Shown here in pieces: positions 2,740-11,330 of a stretch of DNA of 11,607 bases. The stretch comes from a virus. The notes under the pieces are model-generated. The model worked only from the letters and a program-made list of their open reading frames with translations. It was not told where the DNA came from and searched no databases. The translations under genes were made by a program, and so were the position numbers. The stretch lies in UHGV virus genome UHGV-0096542. One strand, written 5' to 3'. Within the stretch, counting starts at the first letter, position 1; each line of letters starts with the position of its first letter.

Positions 2740-3294
2740 TTACTTAGATATTGGCCTTGGCTTTATCTCAATATTATATGGATCATAGCTGGCAACTAAT
2801 TCAGTCCAGTAAATATCCTCAATAGGGAATAATATATGCTTCCCGTTCCATCGGGAAAAAGTTTTGTTCAACACACCAAGCTCAATCAACTCACTAATGT
2901 ATGGGAATTGTTTTGATGTAACCACATACTTCCTGCCTTCATTAAGGGCTGCGCACAAAACCATAGATTGCTCTTCTGTAAGGTTTTGAATTACCGATCG
3001 CACTTTATCGTTTTGCATCTTAATGCGTTTTCTTAGCTTAAATCGCTTATATCTGGCGCTGGCAATAGCTGATAATCGATGCACATTAATTGCTAGCGAA
3101 AATGCAAGAGCAAAGACGAAAACATGCCACACATGAGGAATACCGATTCTCTCATTAACATATTCAGGCCAGTTATCTGGGCTTAAAAGCAGAAGTCCAA
3201 CCCAGATAACGATCATATACATGGTTCTCTCCAGAGGTTCATTACTGAACACTCGTCCGAGAATAACGAGTGGATCCATTTCTATACTCATCAA
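2740..3294 (-). CDS. sieB: Superinfection exclusion protein SieB (184 aa, membrane protein; contains the nested in-frame Esc start)
   Basis: Translation MMSIEMDPLVILGRVFSNEPLERTMYMIVIWVGLLLLSPDNWPEY... matches recalled lambda SieB; opposite strand to the pL operon as in lambda; length equals the lambda gene (555 nt). Confidence 0.9.
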   Translation of the reverse strand: MMSIEMDPLVILGRVFSNEPLERTMYMIVIWVGLLLLSPDNWPEYVNERIGIPHVWHVFVFALAFSLAINVHRLSAIASARYKRFKLRKRIKMQNDKVRSVIQNLTEEQSMVLCAALNEGRKYVVTSKQFPYISELIELGVLNKTFSRWNGKHILFPIEDIYWTELVASYDPYNIEIKPRPISK

Positions 3295-4965: not shown

Positions 4966-5751
4966 ATGAGTACAGCACTCGCAACGCTGGCTGGGAAGCT
5001 GGCTGAACGAGTCGGCATGGATTCTGTCGACCCACAGGAACTGATCACCACTCTTCGCCAGACGGCATTTAAAGGTGATGCCAGCGATGCGCAGTTCATC
5101 GCATTGCTGATCGTCGCCAACCAGTACGGTCTTAATCCGTGGACGAAAGAAATTTACGCCTTCCCTGATAAGCAGAACGGCATCGTTCCGGTGGTGGGCG
5201 TTGATGGCTGGTCCCGCATCATCAACGAAAACCAGCAGTTTGACGGCATGGACTTTGAACAGGACAACGAATCCTGCACATGCCGGATTTACCGCAAGGA
5301 CCGTAATCATCCGATCTGCGTTACCGAGTGGATGGATGAATGCCGCCGCGAACCATTCAAAACCCGCGAAGGCAGAGAAATCACGGGGCCGTGGCAGTCG
5401 CATCCCAAACGGATGTTACGGCATAAAGCCATGATTCAGTGTGCCCGTCTCGCCTTCGGATTTGCTGGTATCTATGACAAGGATGAAGCCGAGCGCATTG
5501 TCGAAAATACTGCATACACTGCAGAACGTCAGCCGGAACGCGACATCACTCCGGTTAACGATGAAACCATGCAGGAGATTAACACTCTGCTGATCGCCCT
5601 GGATAAAACATGGGATGACGACTTATTGCCGCTCTGTTCCCAGATATTTCGCCGCGACATTCGCGCATCGTCAGAACTGACACAGGCCGAAGCAGTGAAA
5701 GCTCTTGGATTCCTGAAACAGAAAGCCACTGAGCAGAAGGTGGCAGCATGA
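4966..5751 (+). CDS. bet: Red beta single-strand annealing recombinase (261 aa)
   Basis: Translation [82 protein letters not shown]... matches lambda Beta; stop overlaps exo start. Confidence 0.97.
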
Positions 5752-6428
5752 CACCGGACATTATCCTGCAGCGTACCGGGATCGACGTGAGAGCTGTCGA
5801 ACAGGGGGATGATGCATGGCACAAATTACGGCTCGGCGTCATCACCGCTTCAGAAGTTCACAACGTGATAGCAAAGCCCCGATCAGGAAAGAAGTGGCCT
5901 GACATGAAAATGTCCTACTTCCACACCCTGCTAGCTGAGGTTTGCACCGGTGTGGCTCCGGAAGTTAACGCTAAAGCGCTGGCCTGGGGAAAACAGTACG
6001 AGAACGACGCCAGAACCCTGTTTGAGTTCACTTCCGGCGTAAATGTTATTGAATCCCCGATCATCTATCGCGACGAAAGTATGCGCACCGCCTGCTCTCC
6101 CGATGGTTTATGCAGTGACGGCAATGGCCTTGAGCTGAAATGCCCGTTTACCTCCCGGGATTTCATGAAATTCCGGCTCGGTGGTTTCGAGGCCATAAAG
6201 TCGGCTTACATGGCCCAGGTGCAGTACAGCATGTGGGTGACGCGAAAAGATGCCTGGTACTTTGCCAACTATGACCCGCGTATGAAGCGTGAAGGCCTGC
6301 ATTATGTCGTGATTGAGCGGAATGAAAAGTATATAGCGAGTTTTGACGAGATGGTGCCGGAGTTCATCGAGAAAATGGACGAGGCACTGGCTGAAATTGG
6401 TTTTGTATTTGGGGAGCAATGGCGATGA
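5748..6428 (+). CDS. exo: Lambda exonuclease (Red alpha, 226 aa)
   Basis: Translation [69 protein letters not shown]... matches lambda Exo; ATGA overlap with bet. Confidence 0.97.
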
Positions 6429-6607
6429 AACATCCTCACGATAATATCCGCGTAGGCACGATCACTTTCGTCTACTCCGTTACGAAGCGAGGCTGGGTAT
6501 TTCCCGGCCTTTCTGTTATCCGAAATCCCCTGAAAGCACAGCGGCTGGCTGAGGAGATAAATAATAAACGGGGAGCTGTATGCACAAAGCATCTCCCGTT
6601 GAGTTAA
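6425..6607 (+). CDS. orf60a: Early-left operon small protein orf60a (60 aa)
   Basis: [63 protein letters not shown]; position and length match the lambda orf60a locus, overlapping the exo stop. Confidence 0.75.
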
Positions 6608-6771
6608 GAACGAGTATCGAGATGGCACATAGCCTCGCTCAAATTGGAGTCAGGTTTGTGCCAATACCAGTAGAAACAGACGAAGAATTTCATACGTTAG
6701 CCGCATCCCTTTCACAAAAGCTGGAAATGATGGTGGCGAAAGCAGAAGCAGATGAGAGAGACCAGGTATGA
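6580..6771 (+). CDS. orf63: Early-left operon small protein orf63 (63 aa)
   Basis: [66 protein letters not shown]; position and length match the lambda orf63 locus. Confidence 0.75.
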   Translation: MHKASPVELRTSIEMAHSLAQIGVRFVPIPVETDEEFHTLAASLSQKLEMMVAKAEADERDQV

Positions 6772-7063
6772 CAACCACGGAATGCATTTTTCTGGCAGCG
6801 GGCTTCATATTCTGTGTGCTTATGCTTGCCGACATGGGACTTGTTCAATGACACCTCAGCAGGAAAACGCCCTTCGCAGCATTGCCCGTCAGGCTAATTC
6901 TGAAATCAAAAAAGCCAGACAGCAGTTTCCGGATAAAAACGTCGATGACATTTGCCGTAGCGTACTGAAGAAGCACCGCGAAACGGTAACGCTGATGGGA
7001 TTCACACCGACTCATTTAAGCCTGGCAATCGGCATGTTAAACGGCGTCTTTAAGGAACGATGA
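6752..7063 (+). CDS. orf61: orf61-like early protein, here open for 103 codons (lambda reference orf61 is 61 aa from the same start); alternative internal start at 6848 (MTPQQENALRSIARQ..., 71 aa)
   Basis: Start overlaps the orf63 3' end by 20 nt, the same arrangement as lambda orf61/orf63; codon 62 is AAA where the lambda-length gene would stop. Confidence 0.55.
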   Translation: MRETRYDNHGMHFSGSGLHILCAYACRHGTCSMTPQQENALRSIARQANSEIKKARQQFPDKNVDDICRSVLKKHRETVTLMGFTPTHLSLAIGMLNGVFKER

Positions 7064-7085
7064 ACATGAAAAGCAAAATCATCAG

Positions 7086-7106
7086 GGAGCTACAGGCTCC
7101 TTTTTT
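7086..7106 (+). terminator. Terminator-like hairpin (GGAGC-TACAG-GCTCC followed by TTTTTTATT) between orf61 and orf73
   Basis: 5-bp GC-rich inverted repeat followed by a T6 run; a 29-codon ORF (7066..7155) overlaps it but the hairpin plus T-tract fits a terminator better. Confidence 0.35.
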
Positions 7107-7161
7107 ATTATTCGCATTCACCCTCAAGCGTATTAACCAACAATTCAGGGATTAATGGAAG

Positions 7162-7383
7162 ATGGCAGACATCATTGATTCAGCATCAGAAATTGAAGAA
7201 TTACAGCGCAACACAGCAATAAAAATGCGCCGCCTGAACCACCAGGCTATATCTGCCACTCATTGTTGTGAGTGTGGCGATCCGATAGATGAACGAAGAC
7301 GCCTGGTCGTTCAGGGTTGTCGGACTTGTGCAAGTTGCCAGGAGGATCTGGAGCTTATCAGTAAACAGAGAGGTTCGAAGTGA
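7162..7383 (+). CDS. orf73: TraR/DksA-family C4 zinc-finger protein (lambda orf73-like, 73 aa), RNA polymerase secondary-channel binding regulator
   Basis: Translation MADIIDSASEIEELQRNTAIKMRRLNHQAISATHCCECGDPIDERRRLVVQGCRTCASCQEDLELISKQRGSK has the CxxC-N17-CxxC pattern (C-E-C ... C-A-S-C) and size typical of TraR-like proteins. Confidence 0.8.
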   Translation: MADIIDSASEIEELQRNTAIKMRRLNHQAISATHCCECGDPIDERRRLVVQGCRTCASCQEDLELISKQRGSK

Positions 7384-7535
7384 GCGAAATTAACTAGAAG
7401 CCAAAGATAAAATCATCGCTGAGCAGGAGAAAATCGCTAACGGAGAAAAGACAGTAAGTCAGTATATGAAAACCGCATGATATCATCAGATAAAAATCGG
7501 TCGTAGAGCAAAATATTAATACCAGAACAAACGAG

Positions 7536-7559
7536 TCGAGGTAAATTATATTACCTCGA
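7536..7559 (-). terminator. Hairpin (9-bp stem TCGAGGTAA / TTACCTCGA, 6-nt loop) immediately downstream of the minus-strand membrane-protein gene; candidate terminator for that gene
   Basis: Perfect 9-bp inverted repeat 7536..7544/7551..7559 about 35 nt beyond the stop codon at 7594..7596; followed on the minus strand by a moderately U-rich tract (CUCGUUUGUUCUG). Confidence 0.4.
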
Positions 7560-7593
7560 TAAATTAACTAAAACTTGCCCGCTATATACTATA

Positions 7594-8196
7594 TCATTCA
7601 GTATCATCACGCACGGTCTGTGCATATGTCACTACCGCACCTAATATATTAATTTTCTTTTCAACATAGATAATATTATCGTACTCATAATTGCCATACG
7701 GATAGCAAATGCGAATATTCTCATGTAGATCGGGGTCATCCACCTCAGCGCCAGAACAACTTTTTGAACTACCGGAAGTATACCGATACGGTGCAACATA
7801 AGACGATGTCTCTCCAGGCAAAAAATAAGTTAGTGTCGTAAGGGGTATAATCAGAAAAAATCCAGCAAATATGCACATCCCTGCATAAACCTTAAGGTAT
7901 GCTGACAGACTCTTCCAGCCTCTTTGTTTTACTATCCCCTTCTTAACCCAAAACAGAGATAACAGAAAAGCTATTCCCATGCTAAACAGAATGTAATAGT
8001 GGGATATACTCTGATTAAGAAACGTGACCCTGTAGATATCTGCCCGCCACCAGAAGAAAAGGAAAATAAAGATCAGCCCTGAAACTGTCATGCAAATCAA
8101 ATAAGGATACGAATCTTTTTTCATGTTTAGCGCCCATAAAATTTTTCCTGACCCGGACAAATTTACCATCCATTTTTTGCGCAGAAAATAACTCAT
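7594..8196 (-). CDS. Hypothetical integral membrane protein (200 aa from first ATG; alternative starts at codons 10 and 25), three predicted TM helices plus a ~75-aa C-terminal domain; antisense to the pL operon in the ea22/ea8.5 slot
   Basis: Long uninterrupted minus-strand ORF in a markedly AT-rich segment; hydrophobic stretches YLICMTVSGLIFIFLFFWW, YYILFSMGIAFLLSLFWV, VYAGMCIFAGFFLIIPLTTLTYFL; followed by a hairpin; no resemblance to lambda proteins I know. Confidence 0.7.
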   Translation of the reverse strand: MSYFLRKKWMVNLSGSGKILWALNMKKDSYPYLICMTVSGLIFIFLFFWWRADIYRVTFLNQSISHYYILFSMGIAFLLSLFWVKKGIVKQRGWKSLSAYLKVYAGMCIFAGFFLIIPLTTLTYFLPGETSSYVAPYRYTSGSSKSCSGAEVDDPDLHENIRICYPYGNYEYDNIIYVEKKINILGAVVTYAQTVRDDTE

Positions 8197-8438
8197 TACT
8201 TACTGCACAATAATACACAAAATTGCGTAAATTTTTTGCATGGATTTTAGCTCTTTCAGCCGACATTTAAGGGGTAAATAGCATTTCCTAAAAGCAACTG
8301 CACCAACCCAACAGAATGGGCTACCGCTTACGTTGAGAGCAAAAAAGTGTATAGCAGCAATGAACAGCATCCTCGCACTGACGAGGATTTCTTTTATCTG
8401 AACTCGCTACGGCGGGTTTTGTTTTATGGAGATGATAA

Positions 8439-8606
8439 ATGCACTTCCGAGTCACAGGTGAATGGAATGGAGAACCATTCAACAGAGTTATCGAAGCCGA
8501 GAACATCAGCGACTGCTATGACCACTGGATGCTGTGGGCGCAGATAGCACATGCAGACGTAACCAATATTCGAATTGAAGAACTGAAAGAACACCAAGCC
8601 GCCTGA
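8439..8606 (+). CDS. Small hypothetical protein (55 aa, MHFRVTGEWNGEPFNRVIEAENISDCYDHWMLWAQIAHADVTNIRIEELKEHQAA) immediately upstream of xis
   Basis: ORF read manually (below six-frame cut-off); GGAG 8 nt upstream of ATG; in-frame TAA directly upstream fixes the start; stop codon lies in the loop of the following hairpin. Confidence 0.45.
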   Translation: MHFRVTGEWNGEPFNRVIEAENISDCYDHWMLWAQIAHADVTNIRIEELKEHQAA

Positions 8607-8618
8607 TGGCGGTTTTTT
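8599..8618 (+). terminator. Intrinsic terminator-like hairpin (CCGCC-TGAT-GGCGG + T6) just upstream of pI/xis
   Basis: 5-bp GC stem 8599..8603/8608..8612 followed by TTTTTT at 8613..8618. Confidence 0.4.
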
Positions 8619-8619
8619 C

Positions 8620-8633
8620 TTGCGTGTAATTGC
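8620..8633 (+). promoter_or_regulatory. pI promoter -35 region with CII binding repeat (TTGCGTGTAATTGC) driving int
   Basis: TTGC-N6-TTGC direct repeat 12 nt upstream of the xis ATG, matching the recalled lambda pI CII site. Confidence 0.6.
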
Positions 8634-8645
8634 GGAGACTTTGCG

Positions 8646-8864
8646 ATGTACTTGACACTTCAGGAGTGGAACGCACGCCAGCGACGCCCAAGAAGCCTTG
8701 AAACAGTTCGTCGATGGGTACGCGAGTGCAGGATATTCCCTCCTCCGGTTAAGGATGGAAGAGAGTATCTGTTCCACGAATCAGCGGTAAAGGTTGACTT
8801 AAATCGACCAGTAACAGGTAGCCTTTTGAAGAGGATCAGAAATGGGAAGAAGGCGAAGTCATGA
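8646..8864 (+). CDS. xis: Excisionase Xis (72 aa)
   Basis: Translation MYLTLQEWNARQRRPRSLETVRRWVRECRIFPPPVKDGREYLFHESAVKVDLNRPVTGSLLKRIRNGKKAKS matches lambda Xis; overlaps int start. Confidence 0.97.
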   Translation: MYLTLQEWNARQRRPRSLETVRRWVRECRIFPPPVKDGREYLFHESAVKVDLNRPVTGSLLKRIRNGKKAKS

Positions 8865-9912
8865 GCGCCGGGATTTACCCCCTAACCTTTATATAAGAAA
8901 CAATGGATATTACTGCTACAGGGACCCAAGGACGGGTAAAGAGTTTGGATTAGGCAGAGACAGGCGAATCGCAATCACTGAAGCCATACAGGCCAACATT
9001 GAGTTATTTTCAGGACACAAACACAAGCCTCTGACAGCGAGAATCAACAGTGATAATTCCGTTACGTTACATTCATGGCTTGATCGCTACGAAAAAATCC
9101 TGGCCAGCAGAGGAATCAAGCAGAAGACACTCATAAATTACATGAGCAAAATTAAAGCAATAAGGAGGGGGCTGCCTGATGCTCCACTTGAAGACATCAC
9201 CACAAAAGAAATTGCGGCAATGCTCAATGGATACATAGACGAGGGCAAGGCGGCGTCAGCCAAGTTAATCAGATCAACACTGAGCGATGCATTCCGAGAG
9301 GCAATAGCTGAAGGCCATATAACAACAAACCCTGTCGCTGCCACTCGCGCAGCAAAATCAGAGGTAAGGAGATCAAGACTTACGGCTGACGAATACCTGA
9401 AAATTTATCAAGCAGCAGAATCATCACCATGTTGGCTCAGACTTGCAATGGAACTGGCTGTTGTTACCGGGCAACGAGTTGGTGATTTATGCGAAATGAA
9501 GTGGTCTGATATCGTAGATGGATATCTTTATGTCGAGCAAAGCAAAACAGGCGTAAAAATTGCCATCCCAACAGCATTGCATGTTGATGCTCTCGGAATA
9601 TCAATGAAGGAAACACTTGATAAATGCAAAGAGATTCTTGACGGAGAAACCATAATTGCATCTACTCGTCGTGAACCGCTTTCATCCGGCACAGTATCAA
9701 GGTATTTTATGCGCGCACGAAAAGCATCAGGTCTTTCCTTCGAAGGGGATCCGCCTACCTTTCACGAGTTGCGCAGTTTGTCTGCAAGACTCTATGAGAA
9801 GCAGATAAGCGATAAGTTTGCTCAACATCTTCTCGGGCATAAGTCGGACACCATGGCATCACAGTATCGTGATGACAGAGGCAGGGAGTGGGACAAAATT
9901 GAAATCAAATAA
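8842..9912 (+). CDS. int: Lambda integrase Int (356 aa, tyrosine recombinase)
   Basis: Translation MGRRRSHERRDLPPNLYIRNNGYYCYRDPRTGKEFGLGRDRRIAITEAIQANIELF...HELRSLSARLYEKQISDKFAQHLLGHKSDTMASQYRDDRGREWDKIEIK matches lambda Int including the C-terminal catalytic H-x-x-R...Y region. Confidence 0.97.
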   Translation: MGRRRSHERRDLPPNLYIRNNGYYCYRDPRTGKEFGLGRDRRIAITEAIQANIELFSGHKHKPLTARINSDNSVTLHSWLDRYEKILASRGIKQKTLINYMSKIKAIRRGLPDAPLEDITTKEIAAMLNGYIDEGKAASAKLIRSTLSDAFREAIAEGHITTNPVAATRAAKSEVRRSRLTADEYLKIYQAAESSPCWLRLAMELAVVTGQRVGDLCEMKWSDIVDGYLYVEQSKTGVKIAIPTALHVDALGISMKETLDKCKEILDGETIIASTRREPLSSGTVSRYFMRARKASGLSFEGDPPTFHELRSLSARLYEKQISDKFAQHLLGHKSDTMASQYRDDRGREWDKIEIK

Positions 9913-10005
9913 TGATTTTATTTTGACTGATAGTGACCTGTTCGTTGCAACAAATTGATAAGCAATGCTTTTTTATAATGCCAACTTAGTATAAAAAAGC
10001 AGGCT
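9913..10005. other. attL: attL (B-O-P') prophage/host junction: P' arm with Int arm-type site (reverse complement AGGTCACTATCAG at about 9925..9937) and IHF-like site, 15-bp core at 9986..10000, then host B arm
   Basis: Reverse complement of 9981..10008 reads TGAAGCCTGCTTTTTTATACTAAGTTGG, i.e. core GCTTTTTTATACTAA flanked by attB-type left arm (CTGC) and attP-type right arm (GTTGG). Confidence 0.85.
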
Positions 10006-10046: not shown

Positions 10047-11330
10047 GTGAACACATTTTCAGTTTCCCGTCTGGCGCTGGCATTGGCTTTTGGCGTGACG
10101 CTGACCGCCTGTAGCTCAACACCGCCCGATCAACGTCCTTCTGATCAAACCGCGCCTGGTACCTCTTCTCGCCCGATTCTGTCGGCAAAAGAAGCGCAGA
10201 ATTTCGATGCTCAACACTATTTTGCATCCCTGACACCAGGTGCTGCAGCGTGGAATCCTTCCCCGATTACCCTGCCTGCGCAACCTGACTTTGTTGTCGG
10301 CCCGGCGGGTACTCCAGGTGTAACGCATACCACGATTCAGGCGGCGGTAGATGCGGCAATTATCAAGCGCACCAACAAGCGCCAGTATATTGCCGTGATG
10401 CCTGGTGAGTATCAGGGAACGGTATATGTCCCTGCCGCTCCGGGTGGAATTACTCTGTACGGTACAGGTGAAAAACCGATTGATGTGAAGATTGGGCTTT
10501 CCCTTGATGGTGGCATGAGCCCTGCCGACTGGCGTCACGACGTCAACCCGCGCGGCAAATATATGCCAGGTAAACCAGCGTGGTATATGTACGATAGCTG
10601 CCAGAGCAAACGCAGCGACAGTATCGGTGTTCTCTGCTCTGCGGTCTTCTGGTCACAAAACAATGGCCTGCAACTGCAAAATCTGACCATCGAAAACACG
10701 CTGGGCGATAGCGTAGATGCAGGTAACCATCCGGCGGTGGCACTGCGTACTGATGGTGACCAGGTACAGATTAACAACGTTAACATTCTCGGTCGTCAGA
10801 ACACCTTCTTTGTCACCAACAGCGGTGTGCAGAACCGTCTGGAAACCAACCGTCAGCCGCGTACGCTGGTGACCAACAGCTACATTGAAGGGGATGTGGA
10901 TATCGTTTCTGGTCGCGGCGCAGTGGTGTTCGATAATACCGAATTCCGCGTGGTGAACTCACGTACTCAGCAAGAAGCGTATGTGTTTGCACCGGCTACG
11001 CTGTCCAACATCTATTACGGTTTCCTCGCCGTAAACAGCCGTTTCAATGCTTCCGGTGATGGCGTGGCGCAACTGGGCCGCTCGCTGGATGTTGATGCCA
11101 ATACCAACGGTCAGGTGGTGATCCGTGATAGCGCCATCAACGAAGGTTTTAACACGGCTAAACCGTGGGCCGATGCGGTGATTTCCAATCGTCCGTTTGC
11201 GGGTAATACTGGCAACGTTGATGATAACGACGAAGTACAGCGTAATCTGAATGACACTAACTACAACCGCATGTGGGAATACAATAACCGCGGCGTGGGT
11301 AGCAAAGTGGTTGCAGAGGCGAAGAAGTAA
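10047..11330 (+). CDS. ybhC: Host outer-membrane lipoprotein YbhC (pectinesterase-fold; 427 aa, GTG start)
   Basis: N-terminal lipoprotein signal MNTFSVSRLALALAFGVTLTAC (lipobox LTAC); this gene flanks attB(lambda) on the gal side in E. coli; long ORF with host-like codon usage. Confidence 0.9.
   Translation: MNTFSVSRLALALAFGVTLTACSSTPPDQRPSDQTAPGTSSRPILSAKEAQNFDAQHYFASLTPGAAAWNPSPITLPAQPDFVVGPAGTPGVTHTTIQAAVDAAIIKRTNKRQYIAVMPGEYQGTVYVPAAPGGITLYGTGEKPIDVKIGLSLDGGMSPADWRHDVNPRGKYMPGKPAWYMYDSCQSKRSDSIGVLCSAVFWSQNNGLQLQNLTIENTLGDSVDAGNHPAVALRTDGDQVQINNVNILGRQNTFFVTNSGVQNRLETNRQPRTLVTNSYIEGDVDIVSGRGAVVFDNTEFRVVNSRTQQEAYVFAPATLSNIYYGFLAVNSRFNASGDGVAQLGRSLDVDANTNGQVVIRDSAINEGFNTAKPWADAVISNRPFAGNTGNVDDNDEVQRNLNDTNYNRMWEYNNRGVGSKVVAEAKK

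Follow-up and report, generated by a model that had tools for sequence, protein, structure and literature searches.

A conserved gene for a small membrane protein, lying antisense to the pL operon of a 434-immunity lambdoid prophage, very probably constitutes a portable single-gene cassette (a moron) of the 434-type lambdoid phages, and its product is, with the same high probability, a protein of the inner membrane. The prophage, inserted at the lambda attachment site, was analysed in a stretch of 11,607 nucleotides (UHGV virus genome UHGV-0096542), which as a whole is called the window in what follows. A first-pass annotation of this DNA had already described the gene as a candidate moron. 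This view is supported at the sequence level by the absence of the gene-bearing module from lambda, by the contrast in GC content between the module and its flanks, and by a unit of candidate promoter plus gene that recurs in P2-like prophages, in decayed prophages and in islands. Regarding its role, the most plausible picture is that of a moron expressed from the prophage, whose product would act in the inner membrane and periplasm and would impose a block of the superinfection-exclusion type; about this reading taken as a whole we are slightly more doubtful than convinced. Several other explanations have been weighed against it, and they are considered below together with the data on which each of them depends.

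The module and its prophage setting

Within the window, the open reading frame at 1029-1661 is that of the 434-type repressor, identified from its sequence as 434 cI. It is followed by sieB (2740-3294, minus strand; PF14163/SieB profile match at 1e-29), by bet and exo (4966-6428), and by orf73 (7162-7383, plus strand; Pfam PF01258, PHROG 54), which codes for a DksA/TraR zinc-finger protein and is the final gene of the pL operon ahead of the module. The first lambda-type gene past the module is orf55 (8439-8606, plus strand; PHROG 676, lambda lambdap35), after which come xis (8646-8864), int (8842-9912), the att core GCTTTTTTATACTAA (9986-10000) and the host gene ybhC, starting at 10047. Over positions 7000-8900 the nearest sequenced phage is mEp332 (99.1%), then 2B8 and 434 (98%). 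Phage 434 has an ORF114 between orf55 and xis, whereas the prophage in the window lacks it.

The first-pass annotation had described flanks collinear with lambda and, between them, an AT-rich replacement of the ea22/ea8.5 genes, and blastn comparisons bear out both statements. The left flank (6401-7395) aligns to lambda at 98% and the right flank (8369-9000) at 97%, whereas 7396-8368 has no lambda counterpart: blastn returned no alignment of this interval to lambda 29356-30379 on either strand, and searches of Pfam and PHROG gave no match to the Ea22 family. The near-identity to lambda ea22/ea8.5 which the annotation itself had named as contrary evidence is thus not seen in the alignment. These limits define a foreign module of 973 bp with a GC content of 38.0%, against 46.8% in 6401-7395 and 46.0% in 8369-9912. 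The lambda stretch that it displaces (29356-30379) comprises ea22 minus its first 16 nt, the whole of ea8.5 and 18 bp further. Because lambda homology breaks off within ea22 after these 16 nt (at 7395), the five-codon stub GTG-S-E-I-N-stop noticed earlier (7380-7397, plus strand) can be identified as the retained start of ea22, which runs into foreign DNA and finds its stop codon there. At the right junction, where lambda homology restarts, the terminator scan detected a terminator-like hairpin (8369-8388, plus strand), which is the 't-L4' of the old 434 record M60848.

The module contains one real gene, which is located on the minus strand and is convergent with pL, as had been proposed. On the plus strand no ORF longer than 30 aa is present in the module, and Rfam gave no match across 7000-8800. 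Two other small reading frames were considered and rejected. The 27-aa frame at 7397-7480 (plus strand; EAKDKIIAEQEKIANGEKTVSQYMKTA) was tried as a remnant of an Ea22-like C-terminus, and its tblastn matches are confined to 434, mEp332 and 2B8. A 56-aa ORF at 8200-8370 bears the label 'membrane protein' in the 434 annotation but is unlikely to be a gene: it is unconserved in the P2 copies, overlaps the promoter region and is not called by RefSeq.

This arrangement of the module is not new. It is native to phages 434, mEp332 and 2B8, in which orf73 and orf55 likewise enclose this gene (98-99% identity). In GenBank OL657226 (phage 434) the gene is CPT_434_36, a 'putative membrane protein'; a partial version, 'ORF-22+', is annotated in M60848, an earlier record of the 434 int-xis region. 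The announcement of the 434 genome goes no further than to note that 434 and lambda have different morons (PMC9119081). No functional study of the protein came up in literature searches by accession, phage or topic, and no experimental record of anti-phage protection by the gene was found in the literature either. The existing records consulted for the gene do not mention the start that gives 176 aa, the conserved candidate promoter or the connection to the old/tin locus of P2, all of which are described below. In summary, the element is a genuine and ordinary-looking moron, and is not categorically new.

The gene, its start codon and its candidate promoter

The longest ORF over the gene (7594-8196, minus strand) corresponds to the protein of 200 aa that had been read from the sequence in the first place. 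This ORF is present as described, but the conserved protein is shorter. Relatives at 77% identity or less all begin at the equivalent of Met25 of the 200-aa ORF (ATG at 8124), and a Shine-Dalgarno sequence is recognisable ahead of this ATG in the more distant copies. The 72 nt upstream of the ATG are conserved as DNA, yet in the P2-like copies of Salmonella and a KpLE1-like copy of E. coli they are interrupted by stop codons; therefore, the 24-codon extension of the open frame (8125-8196, minus strand), whose coding is unconserved, is noncoding and represents 5' UTR and promoter DNA. The common start of the relatives, the stop codons in the extension and the Shine-Dalgarno sequence together place the coding sequence at 7594-8124 (minus strand), with 176 aa plus a stop codon. 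By comparison, the 434 record uses a start that gives 188 aa.

The gene evolves under purifying selection: dN/dS amounts to 0.09 in the comparison with the Salmonella copy (71% identity) and to 0.21 with an E. coli copy of 97% identity. These values bear on the explanation that the gene is a functionless passenger, that is, an ORF that is decaying or selfish and serves no role under selection. The protein has no known domain and no literature, and truncated or frameshifted copies exist among those in the databases, as would be expected of such a passenger. On the other hand, a dN/dS of 0.09-0.2, invariant cysteines and motifs, a confident AlphaFold model and the intact state of the gene in degraded prophages all speak against this explanation and make it barely credible.

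For the comparison of promoters, the upstream regions of eleven copies were aligned. A candidate extended -10 element (TGGTAAATT; 8160-8168, minus strand) lies about 36 nt upstream of the ATG at 8124, and the corresponding pattern TGnTAA(A/G/T)TT recurs in the lambdoid, KpLE1-like, five P2-like (of three homologue types) and Cedecea copies, where it precedes the start codon by about 36-45 nt; in the K. michiganensis copy, TACAAT takes its place. A generic scan of the window for -35/-10 consensus promoters did not report 8160-8168, because the element has no good -35. The DNA similarity to the Salmonella P2-like prophage, which amounts to 71% identity over 7626-8257, includes about 130 bp upstream of the ATG. 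Judged from these alignments, the extended -10 would be a promoter that travels with the gene.

Upstream of this candidate promoter there is a direct repeat TTGT-N6-TTGT (8207-8220, minus strand), which forms part of a series of TTGTGCA-type repeats with a 10-nt period; two to three copies of these repeats are kept in the P2-like versions. Because 8207-8220 lies shortly before the gene and carries the label of a CII consensus site in the 434 annotation, a function in phage development has to be considered. According to this explanation, CII would switch the gene on through TTGT-N6-TTGT during the establishment of lysogeny, and either the protein would target FtsH or another membrane factor of the host, or the transcript, which is antisense to the distal pL operon, would serve as an antisense brake on the pL-operon genes. 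However, the site reads TTGT/TTGT, and the more general motif TTGY-N6-TTGY occurs five times in the window: at 566 (presumed pRE), at 8620 (presumed pI), at 8207-8220, at 785 and at 10673 (in ybhC). Those at 785 and 10673 have no evident role and may be chance occurrences. In addition, the same repeats accompany the same gene in P2-like prophages, which to our knowledge have no lambda-type CII. Assignment of 8207-8220 as a CII site is statistically uncompelling and was rejected, and the TTGTGCA-type repeats are treated here as a putative regulatory element. The protein cannot be merely a template for antisense RNA, because it is under purifying selection. Overall, a developmental function of this kind appears quite improbable.

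Downstream of the gene, the first-pass annotation had proposed a hairpin of its own. A 9-bp stem-loop is indeed present 35 nt past the stop codon (7536-7559, minus strand), as detected by terminator scan and folding; the 86-nt region folds at -20.1 kcal/mol (z = -2.6), but the U-tract (CUCGUUUGUU) is weak for a terminator. It is best described as a candidate, rather weak intrinsic terminator, and its assignment to the minus-strand gene is plausible but weak. The hairpin lies beyond the homology to the P2-like copies, in which the alignment ends at 7626, and no terminator-like site was found downstream of the Salmonella copy.

Protein architecture and distribution of the family

The three hydrophobic helices and small C-terminal domain of the original description are confirmed by hydropathy, which shows three membrane segments, and by an AlphaFold model in which three helices precede a barrel of five strands; its pLDDT is 82.7 over the whole chain, and the domain modelled by itself reaches 90.8. 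Charge counts in 19 homologues assign the N-terminus to the cytoplasm together with loop 2, which has a net charge of +2.9; the C-terminal domain, which is acidic, is assigned to the outside. The sole sizeable soluble part of the protein is this domain, a 75-residue OB-like beta-barrel which by prediction faces the periplasm and which is the most conserved portion of the protein. The family alignment shows that Cys123 (motif CSGA) and Cys140 (motif ICYP) are invariant, the two cysteines and their motifs being unchanged across 36-99% identity, and the pair is compatible with a periplasmic disulfide. A lipoprotein or signal-peptide N-terminus was also considered and discarded (Cys11 is unconserved and a lipobox is absent).

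Searches for known relatives of the membrane protein gave little. No match was obtained in Pfam or NCBIfam, in a sequence-profile search of the PDB, or with the SieB profiles (Pfam PF14163 and PHROG); none of the 5027 models in PADLOC-DB v2 matched at E <= 1, and Foldseek against viral structures returned nothing below E = 0.19. PHROG 1416, a family of unknown function, matches only the last 88 residues (113-200) of the 200-aa ORF, with E = 3.5e-50. A word-indexed search of 5.8 billion proteins yielded 74 relatives, each of them named 'hypothetical' or 'transmembrane protein', and an exhaustive profile search of 1.84 billion representatives yielded 61 clusters, in which all the named members are Enterobacterales, including Proteus, Providencia, Erwinia and Phytobacter. 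A profile match to a 3074-aa repeat protein (P0122) was put aside, as it looks like a low-information match to Cys-containing Ig-like repeats.

Among 50,697 sequenced phage genomes, the gene is found only in 434, 434B, mEp332 and 2B8. At least 80% of the 1,055-bp segment between orf73 and orf55 is held by 905 of the 5426 complete E. coli genomes (about 17%), and about every sixth E. coli genome, those of O157:H7 and Shigella among them, has a member of the gene family. In O157:H7, the gene is intact inside an IS-disrupted and internally deleted prophage remnant at ybhC; in strain SCU-113, it is intact in a KpLE1-like remnant next to torI and dsdC. Another group of homologues resides in P2-like prophages, between the portal gene Q and gpA, and comprises five clusters: P0039 (77%), P0044 (71%), P0048 (59%), P0050 (57%) and P0054 (56%). 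Their hosts are E. coli, Salmonella, E. hormaechei and K. michiganensis, and the neighbouring genes vary, including those for a YafO toxin, ParM/StbA and an AAA_16 protein. The copy in the window itself sits in a lambdoid phage and not in a P2-like one. The portal-gpA (old/tin) position of P2 is a hotspot of anti-phage systems (PMC9122126). In the corresponding hotspot of P4, six out of eight tested unannotated loci were antiviral, and 15-32% of the P2 proteins of unknown function have been predicted to be antiviral (PMC13586616).

More distant copies (36-55% identity) are singletons on the chromosome. For example, one chromosomal locus is syntenic across five Enterobacter species; the copy of Cedecea adjoins an integrase fragment; and other chromosomal copies, in Klebsiella, Citrobacter and Pseudescherichia, are located among housekeeping genes. 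Since the distant homologues at 36-48% identity are plain singletons of the chromosome, one of them syntenic, a role in the cell envelope that has nothing to do with phages is conceivable for the family. In that case the gene would be a lysogenic-conversion gene for a host-fitness or immunity factor, whose periplasmic domain would counteract a toxin acting in the periplasm (a bacteriocin, a CDI effector or a T6SS effector, the protein then being an orphan immunity protein) or envelope stress. Periplasmic binding would suit a small protein that crosses the membrane several times and has a periplasmic domain and a conserved pair of cysteines, and the retention of the gene in decayed prophages is also in keeping with a benefit to the host. 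Nevertheless, no gene for such a toxin, for a T6SS, for CDI or for a bacteriocin adjoins any of the examined copies, and the closer homologues are all found in the P2 anti-phage hotspot rather than in effector-immunity islands. A host factor of this kind is therefore considered unlikely.

Possible function and comparison with known systems

For the protein itself, a function of the superinfection-exclusion type is proposed tentatively, our confidence in it falling somewhat short of even. It is the most likely function in view of the homologues in the P2 old/tin hotspot, the maintenance of the gene in decayed prophages and the precedent of SieA. In the lysogen, where pL is repressed, the gene would be transcribed from its own candidate promoter; during lytic growth, N-antiterminated transcription from pL would run head-on through it. 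The protein would act at the periplasmic face of the inner membrane, because it has essentially no cytoplasmic mass, and it would block the entry of the genomes of other phages. Its target might be a conserved component of the entry route, either a tape-measure or ejection protein of the phage or an inner-membrane receptor of the host; the finding that the periplasmic domain is the most conserved part suggests that the target is conserved as well. Two counterpoints should be mentioned. If the protein were engaged in an arms race with phage proteins, its periplasmic domain would not be expected to be so strongly conserved, and H-NS could silence a cassette as AT-rich as this one.

An alternative use of the membrane location is that of an abortive-infection effector, which would depolarise or permeabilise the inner membrane when the envelope is perturbed by a phage, the cell dying before progeny are produced. 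The product is a membrane protein encoded in a defence hotspot, and the transmembrane proteins of known systems are often suicide effectors (PMC9122126). However, the gene is always solitary and its neighbours vary, so it has no sensor partner; PADLOC gives no match; and almost no residues of the protein are available in the cytoplasm to sense an infection. Such an effector is accordingly improbable. With only about 20 cytoplasmic residues, the protein would not be able to sense intracellular infection, and for this reason an entry block is favoured over a sensor-effector abortive system. A broader proposal, about which we are rather doubtful, is that exclusion by this protein would define a new single-gene family of inner-membrane exclusion or defence proteins, encoded by a promoter-plus-gene cassette that is traded between lambdoid and P2-like prophages, with a disulfide-stabilised periplasmic OB-like domain acting on a conserved step of genome entry.

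If the exclusion reading is true, phage 434 and about 17% of the complete E. coli genomes hold a one-gene barrier to phage entry, which would bear on the host range of phages in therapy. It would also bear on how defence genes pass from one temperate phage to an unrelated one, here from the ea22/ea8.5 position of lambda-type phages to the old/tin hotspot of P2. If, alternatively, the protein has an envelope function unrelated to phages, the gene would be a widespread case of lysogenic conversion. In either case the gene is simple to experiment on, being small, solitary and already present in a laboratory phage, 434.

Several known systems resemble the gene in part. Like the window gene, that of HK97 gp15 is a moron within a conserved lambdoid gene order, and a putative terminator is annotated directly downstream of it. 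HK97 gp15 is reportedly an inner-membrane protein responsible for superinfection exclusion. In contrast to the protein described here, gp15 has 62 aa, is encoded in the same orientation as its neighbours and has no comparable periplasmic domain. A closer likeness in size and topology is offered by SieA of P22, a protein of 162-164 aa with three predicted TM helices, which resides in the inner membrane and blocks DNA injection alone (PMC10883804). The sieA gene, which runs antisense to the operon beside it, is served by a promoter of its own; the window gene is likewise antisense and preceded by a candidate promoter. In P22 SieA, unlike the window protein, TM1 and TM2 are separated by a long loop and a C-terminal beta domain is lacking; comparison with the P22 protein, which represents type A only, gave an hhalign probability of 0.2%, and no SieA PHROG was matched. 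The comparison therefore suggests that the window protein may work like SieA or gp15, and membership of either group is not claimed, because homology to SieA is absent and gp15 has only 62 residues.

The relation to the P2 old/tin cargo is one of location: the five homologues of P2-like prophages lie in exactly the portal-gpA locus described for that cargo (Rousset et al., 2022), and the window protein shows no sequence relationship to Old, to Tin or to the catalogued defence systems. With respect to structure, the best, though tentative, neighbours of the C-terminal domain are DUF1093 and other small OB-fold extracytoplasmic proteins (PDB 3npp and 2k5q); among them is a five-stranded barrel from a protein described as membrane-associated. 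Finally, bor and lom of lambda and sieB of the window are, like this gene, accessory genes of prophages that encode envelope proteins, Bor and Lom being proteins of the outer membrane. None of the three is homologous to it, and sieB shares with it a position antisense within the pL operon.

Upstream region and right junction of the module

Upstream of the conserved -10 of the membrane-protein gene, a candidate extended -10 element, lie direct repeats of the TTGTGCA type with a 10-nt period (window 8207-8220, minus strand), which are labelled as a CII site in the phage 434 record. Two copies of the repeat are present at this site of the window and in the compared locus L005, and three in each of the P2-like prophages L006, L024 and L031. 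The presence of such repeats in P2-like prophages as well suggests a regulator other than CII. The phage 434 record also lists a minus-strand ORF of 56 aa (8200-8370) as a "putative membrane protein". This ORF is unlikely to be a gene: it shows no conservation in the P2-like copies, it overlaps both the promoter region of the membrane-protein gene and the lambda junction, and no gene is called for it in the RefSeq annotation. At the right end of the module, a mosaic junction and a terminator-like hairpin coincide: two such hairpins are located on the plus strand (8369-8388 and 8400-8419), exactly where lambda homology resumes, and the first matches the feature named "t-L4" in GenBank M60848.

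The membrane-protein family in other genomes

Homologues with 36-45% identity to the membrane protein have been found in Enterobacter (loci L034-L037, L041 and L015-L017). In five species of this genus the gene occupies a syntenic chromosomal locus and adjoins the same GGDEF gene, with a neighboring LysR gene that is present, partial or absent, and inheritance along this branch appears to be vertical. The gene also occurs in the heavily decayed ybhC prophage of E. coli O157:H7 strain 2159 (L019, 660-8530), in which the nin region is joined to a bet fragment and IS1203 lies within exo; despite this decay, the membrane-protein gene, orf55, xis and int are intact. The C-terminal beta domain is also found in P0091, a 106-aa protein from an ENA metagenome contig, fused there to another N-terminal part with no resemblance to a membrane segment, and this suggests that the domain is able to function, or at least to be encoded, without the three helices. 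A P2-like prophage of Salmonella (L025) carries, together with its membrane-protein homologue, a gene of the PagK family (PhoP-activated gene K, PF15284; 114-338) adjoining the tail-fibre genes.

A further candidate accessory gene and the relationship to phage 434

A plus-strand ORF (1586-2062) takes the position of lambda rexAB immediately downstream of the 434-type repressor gene; it matches PHROG 2651, and no match for it was obtained in Pfam, PADLOC or NCBIfam. Its translation probably starts at an internal Met, which would yield a signal-peptide-like N-terminus (21 residues), and the ORF is a candidate for a second accessory gene of the prophage, besides the membrane-protein gene, that would be expressed from the prophage. 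Finally, an insertion of 436 bp (ORF114) lies between orf55 and xis in phage 434 (L001 3120-3555 versus window 8615-8618). Since this insertion is missing from the window, as it is from lambda and mEp332, the window is a 434-immunity relative and not phage 434 itself.
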